A stretch of DNA of 58,783 bases, the filler included, from Sphacelaria rigidula (Eukaryota): assembly GCA_964200075.2 (NCBI GenBank). It is 4 parts of 4 records of this genome, joined end to end, with 100 filler letters (N's around TTAATTAATTAA, not from the genome) between each part and the next. Parts side by side here need not be neighbours in the genome. Positions count along the whole stretch, not along the records: positions 1 to 14,624 come from CAXNAA020002140.1; 3 more parts are not named here. One strand, 5' to 3'. Positions 6,340 through 6,529 of this stretch are shown here, in pieces. The notes under the pieces were generated by a model, which saw only the letters and a program-made list of their open reading frames with translations, did not search any database and had not been told where the DNA came from. The translations under genes were made by a program, and so were the position numbers. The first letter of the stretch is position 1. The number at the start of each line of letters is the position of its first letter.

Positions 6340-6529
6340 TTGATTGCTTTGTTGATTGATTGTCGCTCTTTTACTGACTCCCTAGGGATTCAGCCGTAAT
6401 CACATGATGGAGGGAACAGCACCAGGGCTTCCCACGTTGTCCCCCACCGTAGTACTAGCCAGGCCCGACGCCGCTTAACTACACAGAGCGGACGGGAAGT
6501 GGTCCTATCGACGTGGTATAGCCGCTAAA
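6340..6529 (-). mobile_element. 5S rRNA-derived element (SINE3-like, or a 5S-LINE chimera): 5S head ~6412-6529 plus LINE-like tail ~6340-6411
   Basis: Minus strand reads agcggctataccacgtcgataggaccacttcccgtccgctctgtgtagttaagcggcgtcgggcctggctagtactacggtgggggacaacgtgggaagccctggtgctgttcc, a near full-length eukaryotic 5S with box A (agttaagc) and box C. There is no oligo-T terminator; it runs into catcatgtgattacggctgaatccctagggagtcag...gcgacaatcaatcaa. Confidence 0.85.

Follow-up and report, generated by a model that had tools for sequence, protein, structure and literature searches.

The element described here lies on the minus strand at positions 6340–6529 of the window, by which we mean the whole stretch of DNA that was analysed (58,783 bases, 49.6% G+C, 274 N). 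The gene around it encodes a Rab5-type GTPase and lies on the same strand; the element sits in one of its introns. The ORFs on both sides (6796–6975 and 5775–6185, both minus) match Pfam Ras at profile positions 84–120 and 119–156, and their best solved relatives are Rab-5A/5C, at residues 90–126 and 120–164. Because these flanking ORFs are Rab5-type exons, the element lies in an intron, in agreement with what had been read from the sequence alone; the intron ends were read by eye. The features of the locus are as follows.

6007–6799, minus: host intron of the Rab5-type GTPase gene (GT at 6799–6798, CAG acceptor ending at 6007, by eye; flanking Ras/Rab-5A/5C exons)
6275–6339, plus: left part of an older, split copy of the tail family (nhmmer profile 23–76, E 9.8e-7; inverted repeat of 6298–6339 against 6369–6410, 76%, BLAST)
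6334–6339, no strand: candidate target-site duplication, left copy, GCAAAA (plus) or TTTTGC (element sense); the in-silico empty site is best with one copy removed
6340–6417, minus: tail, the 5'-truncated 3' end of a retroposon-like family (nhmmer profile 24–106 of 107 at 6421 to 6339, 68.6 bits; BLAST to four other copies, 74–76% identity)
Near 6374–6393, minus: palindromic hairpin core of the tail (fold; 20-nt self-complementary BLAST match at 6374–6393)
6340–6362, minus: (CAAT)n-type end of the tail
6410–6417, minus: junction microhomology (read from the copy alignment and the Rfam alignment)
6411–6529, minus: 5S rRNA-derived segment (Rfam RF00001, 76.8 bits; other genomic 5S-like contigs align only over 6413/6416–6519/6524)
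6524–6529, no strand: candidate target-site duplication, right copy, GCTAAA (plus) or TTTAGC (element sense), 5/6 identical to the left copy
6530–6556, plus: remainder of the split older copy on the right, with a CAAT-type end of its own (profile about 77–103; in-silico joining)

When the minus strand is read from 6529 to 6411, it gives a full-length match to the 5S rRNA model of Rfam, with 76.8 bits against a gathering score of 38, an E-value of 1.5e-14 and model positions 1–120 of 120 covered. This bears out the sequence-only reading, which had recognised a near full-length 5S rRNA. It is the sole match above the gathering threshold in the 58,783 bases scanned, and a Rfam-type search returned no second 5S in the window even at E ≤ 1. 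By the extent of the model match, the internal promoter region of the 5S head is present, and box A and box C were recognised by eye only, against Xenopus motifs. The copy is slightly decayed, with several non-canonical pairs in the Rfam alignment; the alignment flags the first three and the last three positions of helix I as unpaired, together with several inner pairs. For comparison with the rest of the genome, Logan contigs of public runs were aligned at 80% identity or higher, the DNA runs being X1, X3 and X4. Over about 110 nt, the segment is approximately 97% like the predominant genomic 5S, with three majority differences (6461, 6477 and 6481) at which the other letter makes up 94–99% of the summed depth in these three runs. 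No oligo-T run follows the 5S directly, as had been stated earlier; the first TTTT on the minus strand is found at 6339–6336, immediately behind the tail. The MFE fold of the 5S together with the tail is not more stable than that of shuffled sequences (z 0.65), and only the hairpin of the tail was used from it.

On the minus strand, the 5S passes without a T-run into a tail of about 75 nt, which extends to 6340 and ends in CAATCAATCAACAAAGCAATCAA, a (CAAT)n-type end. The tail belongs to a very abundant repeat family of about 105 nt and represents its 3' end. The following other members and one weak match were located in the window.

5009–5066, strand not given: weak family match (nhmmer E 0.016)
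22667–22768, plus: family copy without 5S (nhmmer 94.9 bits; BLAST)
27915–27996, minus: family copy without 5S (nhmmer 77.0 bits; BLAST)
51353–51458, minus: family copy without 5S, the longest and best (nhmmer 104.1 bits; BLAST, MAFFT)
57466–57568, minus: family copy without 5S (nhmmer 95.8 bits; BLAST)

The nhmmer profile was built from the five clear copies, including the tail copy at 6339–6421, so these five match it by construction; BLAST found them independently. By BLAST and MAFFT, the tail has copies in the window at about 51353–51466, 27916–27995, 57474–57577 and 22670–22767, with 74–80% identity. None of the six other family matches in the window, four of them clear and two partial, carries a 5S. 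The motif CAATCAATCAA occurs twice in the window, at 6352–6362 and 51350–51360 and on the minus strand in both cases, where 0.03 occurrences are expected; two occurrences were obtained in none of 100 shuffles. The earlier description of a tail of about 70 nt, fused directly to the 5S and recurring in the window, is thus confirmed by this motif and by the four other clear copies.

The CAAT/TCAA-type repeat end is present in each of the five clear copies, which differ in their 5' extent. With its profile positions 24–106 of 107, the tail keeps the natural 3' end of the family and is cut on its 5' side. The read contigs display a sharp family boundary at 6352 with unrelated flanks (119, 114 and 130 contigs of X1, X3 and X4, respectively), and beyond 6397 the family runs on as GGTCACATGATAGACGTACC..., not as 5S (65, 59 and 70 contigs). 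Taken together, the constancy of the 3' end, the variation of the 5' end, the hairpin with a short tandem repeat and the high copy number suggest the 3' end of a non-LTR retroposon. A Pfam transposon domain was found in 0 of the 107 ORFs of at least 110 aa in the window. Because no reverse transcriptase or partner LINE was found there, the term "LINE-derived", used in the sequence-only reading, takes its ground solely from the form of the tail. The ORF at 51419–52096 (minus), upstream of the best family copy, was considered as the end of a LINE ORF2 and rejected; it has no Pfam match, and its DNA is part of a local duplication. This direct duplication of about 225 nt (51483–51704 against 52605–52827, 79% identity) adjoins the best copy of the tail family. 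No match to the 25-letter tail motif or to a 29-letter 5S stretch was obtained in the JGI metagenome contigs, and no match to the tail motif in viral contigs. A review on Ectocarpus describes LINEs and many unclassified repeats in that genome (PMC3145265).

Other repeated structures were seen in the window. Units of about 103 nt with 88–93% identity are found at 56416–56991, where four of them lie about 163 nt apart, and one more is located at 57739–57841. A long imperfect palindrome occupies 58161–58439 (reverse self-match of 78% over 285 nt, BLAST). The same interval gives a sub-threshold match to the MIR530 miRNA precursor (41.6 bits against a gathering score of 85), which is probably a foldback repeat.

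The two parts of the element meet within a few nucleotides of the 3' end of the 5S. The end of the Rfam model, position 120, falls at 6411, and homology to the tail family starts at 6417–6421 on the same strand. The small RNA part is therefore co-oriented with the retroposon part and is situated 5' of it. The last eight letters of the 5S, GTTCCCTC, correspond to GTTACGTC in the family, and six of the eight are alike in a register that is set by the rest of the tail. By our own binomial estimate, the chance of such a microhomology in a fixed register is about 0.004. Since GTTCCCTC fits both the 3' end of 5S and the family sequence, the crossover can be placed to this interval and not more exactly. 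A reverse transcriptase that switched templates would leave just such a 5S, complete to its natural 3' end and with that end falling in a microhomology.

The 5S and its tail were inserted antisense, as one unit of 190 bp, into an older copy of the tail's own family, and this block (6340–6529) now splits that opposite-sense copy. When the block was removed in silico and 6339 was joined to 6530, the family match rose from 23.8 to 33.3 bits and was lengthened to profile positions 23–103. Among 25 offsets (6520–6544), the best was exactly 6530. The gain is modest (9.5 bits, with 25 offsets tried); as a random control, 5000 segments of the window were used as the right half, of which 8 reached 33.3 bits (mean 24.9, sd 1.4). 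The rejoined alignment also restores a family motif across the joint, AAAA/GTAC against aagtgc. Among the joints listed for four runs, none skips 6340–6529 as a natural empty-site allele would.

A target-site duplication had been proposed as something to look for, and a candidate of 6 bp was found at the borders of the block, short and imperfect (5/6 identical), with indirect backing from the empty-site result. Its left copy, 6334–6339, also supplies the first T4 run behind the tail. A direct-repeat search at the borders gave no other flanking repeat at these boundaries. The pair TCGAATGATGAA/TCATATGATGAA (10/12; 6562–6551 and 6297–6286) was rejected as a target duplication because both its members fall within the older family copy. 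The true homology to 5S probably begins near 6523–6524, and 6524–6529 (TTTAGC), the first 5–6 nt or so that were called 5S, would then be target duplication and not 5S. With a duplication at this place, it would be understandable that pairing fails at the first three "5S" positions and that the alignments of other genomic 5S copies reach no further than 6519–6524. The feature that had been outlined at 6340–6529 thus keeps its 5S identity and its tail, but its strand has to be corrected to minus, and its first 5–6 nt or so are probably of the target.

The number of similar junctions in the genome was approached through the same contigs. Logan contigs break at repeats and drop rare variants, and 5744 pieces lie outside the listing, so a few diverged copies of the junction could be missed; summed depth, moreover, does not translate into copy number. 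Its value at 6409 was 298.1 in X1, 43.8 in X3 and 105.4 in X4, compared with 70.8, 11.5 and 23.6 for the unique flank. The junction is thus near single copy in depth, at about 4 times the single-copy level, against about 3,500 times for the tail and about 25,000 times for the 5S (bin maxima in X1: tail 245,974, 5S 1,784,538, flank 70.8). Of the approximately four single-copy equivalents at 6409, one is the locus itself and another ends within 5 letters. Alignments of the tail without 5S often reach 6409–6415, as do five of the seven listed tail pieces of X5. The pieces listed for X1, X3 and X4 include no second contig with both 5S and tail; the longest listed pieces besides the locus are 5S-only, run from 6413/6416 to 6519/6530, are at most 115 nt long and have 9–20 differences. 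A family of 5S-derived SINEs, which the sequence-only reading had put forward, is not supported by these depths and pieces. Because many copies with one junction were looked for in these contigs and not found, the element is not classified as a SINE. The second observation that would have told against such a family, genuine 5S units with the same downstream sequence, was not made. The other genomic 5S copies run into a T-run, with the 5S-sense consensus TCTTTTTCATCG... at 6415 (45, 24 and 35 contigs in X1, X3 and X4).

Several further observations were made in these contigs. Two other 5S/tail joints, with other breakpoints, occur at about single-copy depth: 6388/6482, which is on the same strand and skips 93 nt (X4, one contig), and 6410/6446, which joins opposite strands (X1 and X3, one contig each). 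They may be independent 5S/retroposon chimeras or alignment accidents. 5S-like sequence as such is extremely abundant and heterogeneous (window positions 6413–6524 in X1, X3 and X4; summed depth 1,784,538 against a single-copy 70.8 in X1). Contigs of 225–1955 nt at single-copy depth each hold one 5S-like piece of about 110 nt with 9–20 differences. The consensus flanks at the loose ends of 5S-like sequence agree at 0.46–0.63 (0.44 at 6413 in X3), with a T-run downstream, and some joints that go back indicate tandem pieces. This abundance may reflect array heterogeneity, dispersed genes or a mobile 5S family. Loose ends were also seen before 6423 in 27 contigs (X1) and behind 6471 in 25–36 contigs (X1, X3, X4), and their two flank consensuses look like inverted repeats of each other (..AAAGTCAAGTCAAAT and ATTTGA..GACTTGACTTT). 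If the same copies have both loose ends, they would form a separate repeat family that embeds a 5S-like fragment. The flank of the other 5S copies was compared with the upstream part of the tail family by eye only, and the comparison needs two gaps in T-rich sequence. No RNA run is listed among the public runs that contain the stretch. In run X5, whose status as RNA is a guess, sequence from other loci accounts for cover of the tail family and of a portion of the 5S, with no cover over 6489–6573 and 0.25 over 6472–6488. One X5 contig covers intronic 6578–6700 with no differences, which may be due to DNA carry-over or intron retention.

On balance, we consider it probable that 6340–6529 is a single chimeric retrocopy, a one-off product of template switching between a retroposon RNA and 5S rRNA. 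The sequence-only reading had kept a one-off 5S-LINE chimera as its alternative, and this alternative fits best with the near single-copy junction and the insertion as one unit, even though the LINE partner was not found. RNA mediation, the template switch and a LINE as the source of the enzyme are what we infer from the layout of the element. In such an event, target-primed reverse transcription would have begun at the (CAAT)n terminus of an abundant non-LTR-type retroposon RNA, and the reverse transcriptase would have copied about 75 nt from the 3' end of this RNA. At the 8-nt microhomology, the enzyme would have switched onto the 3' end of a 5S rRNA molecule. The 5S would then have been copied to within about 5 nt of its 5' end, and the product would have been sealed into the target. 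The presumed target was the older, opposite-sense copy of the same family in the Rab5-type intron, opened at AAAA/GTAC, with a duplication of 6 bp.

Other explanations of the same locus have to be weighed against this one-off template switch. That the assembly has wrongly linked a 5S repeat with an unrelated intron is scarcely credible. It is true that no Logan contig spans the whole 5S and that the contigs break at 6442/6443. Nevertheless, one contig consists of flank, tail and 32 nt of 5S (6200–6442), and the next, which starts at 6443 or 6447 and extends to 6700, consists of the rest of the 5S and unique flank; in three runs, both have the depth of single-copy sequence. The first interval is covered with no differences in X1 and X3 and with nine in a contig of X4. 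The junction is real and not an assembly error, and an approximately 96%-identical relative or haplotype, represented by X4, shares the insertion. A capture at the DNA level has also been considered, in which fragments of 5S rDNA and of the repeat were stitched in as filler of a double-strand break, with no reverse transcription. End joining can likewise leave microhomology at the joints and a short duplication or none. The fragments, however, end at natural RNA termini (the 3' end of 5S and a point near its 5' end, and the (CAAT)n 3' end of the family), and they are co-oriented, as would be expected for RNA templates and not for random DNA. For this reason, DNA capture is very improbable.

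Two independent events side by side are likewise unlikely. Here a 5S retropseudogene or dispersed 5S gene would have received a 5'-truncated family copy at its T-rich terminator, or the two would have arrived in the reverse order. The density of the family (five clear and two partial copies in 58.8 kb) and the very large number of 5S-like copies in the genome make such neighbours conceivable, and without the tail, the next letters after the 5S would be TTTTGC, which resembles the T-run behind other 5S copies. This course of events would require that a third element be hit twice at one nucleotide, though, and the empty-site analysis is consistent with a single 190-bp block that has just one pair of repeats around it. 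The break is located at the natural 3' end of the RNA within a microhomology, and there is no similarity upstream of the 5S to the flank of other 5S copies, the homology stopping about 5 nt inside the 5S. The last explanation counts the element as one copy, and perhaps the first, of a genuine 5S-headed SINE family of the SINE3 type that is very low in copy number or largely decayed, transcribed by Pol III from a master copy and moved by the partner LINE of the tail. The layout agrees with it, including an intact-looking internal 5S region, a hairpin and (CAAT)n tail, the T4 run and insertion as a unit. About two to three single-copy equivalents of depth are left over at 6409, and the reads contain the two additional 5S/tail joints. 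Those joints have different breakpoints, which points to repeated accidents and not to one family. In addition, no other 5S+tail contig was found among the pieces listed, the junction is at about 4 times the single-copy depth and either part at thousands, and the four other clear and two partial family copies in the window all lack 5S. A SINE3-type family is therefore doubtful.

The closest parallels to a one-off chimera come from mammals. LINE-1 forms chimeras in which U6, 5S, U3 and other small RNAs are joined to the 3' end of L1, and these are described as single, unique, non-propagating events flanked by duplications, with RNA ligation or template switching as the proposed routes (10.1101/2025.02.02.635956). 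Like them, the element has a copy of a Pol III RNA placed 5' of a 5'-truncated retroposon 3' end, a candidate short duplication and a junction that is unique among the pieces listed. The 5S part of human 5S/L1 chimeras is mostly truncated and in antisense orientation (10.1101/2025.02.02.635956), whereas here it is sense and nearly full-length, as in U6/L1. The host also differs from the mammals of those cases, being apparently a brown alga. Instead of poly(A), the tail has a terminal (CAAT)n-type repeat together with a hairpin, which would point to a partner of the "stringent" type, and this partner LINE is presumed here, with no parent bearing a reverse transcriptase in the window.

SINE3 elements, credited to Kapitonov and Jurka in 2003, are said to be SINEs derived from 5S rRNA. 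The element resembles them in its 5S head with a Pol III promoter region, its retroposon-derived tail and the terminator behind that tail; unlike them, it does not form a family, its junction being about single copy, and it has no body between head and tail. SINE3 families are reported to have arisen independently many times, and a lepidopteran SINE3 is known (PMC10886601). The Cassandra and Ajax TRIMs are also non-autonomous retroelements that carry 5S-like sequence, in their case within LTRs (PMC10886601). The present element has no LTRs or paired 5S-bearing repeats, and its 5S is the single one in the window.

The unit thus has a SINE3-type layout, in which a head derived from 5S, with its internal promoter, is followed by the retroposon tail and directly afterwards by the T4 run. 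It displays no sign of amplification and may be regarded as at most a proto-SINE. As a potential precursor of a SINE, it could be transcribed, since Pol III starting from its 5S promoter would read across the tail as far as the T4 run. The host lineage was approached through a neighbouring ORF, for which 2 of 14 matches have names, both being Ectocarpus proteins with 32–36% identity. In the ESM Atlas, a neighbouring ORF of 762 aa gave no match that could be used for this purpose. Together with three runs labelled "algae metagenome", the Ectocarpus matches make a brown-algal origin plausible, which is weaker than the "probable brown alga" of the earlier assignment. In the text accessible to a full-text literature search, which does not take in Repbase, Dfam or SINEBase, no description of 5S-derived SINEs or small-RNA chimeras in brown algae (Phaeophyceae) was found.

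A more far-reaching reading is that a proto-SINE has been caught at birth in a brown alga, with a transcribable 5S head and the recognition tail of a very successful retroposon, and that it is one of several independent 5S/tail joints in this lineage. We regard this as an unlikely proposal. If it is true, then, taken with the many diverged and dispersed 5S-like copies, stramenopile retrotransposition machinery recruits 5S rRNA repeatedly, and a real 5S-SINE, possibly with another tail, may exist in this genome. For genome annotation, the locus is a warning that a high-scoring intronic 5S match is not a 5S gene and that a SINE-like layout is by itself not enough to establish a SINE family. As a probable one-off chimera, it would imply that the enzyme that moves the very abundant (CAAT)n-tailed family can switch templates. 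It would add a further case, from an unusual lineage (apparently the brown algae), of a process already known, and would illustrate the elementary step from which SINEs are supposed to originate, namely, the joining of a Pol III RNA to the recognition tail of a retroposon in one insertion.
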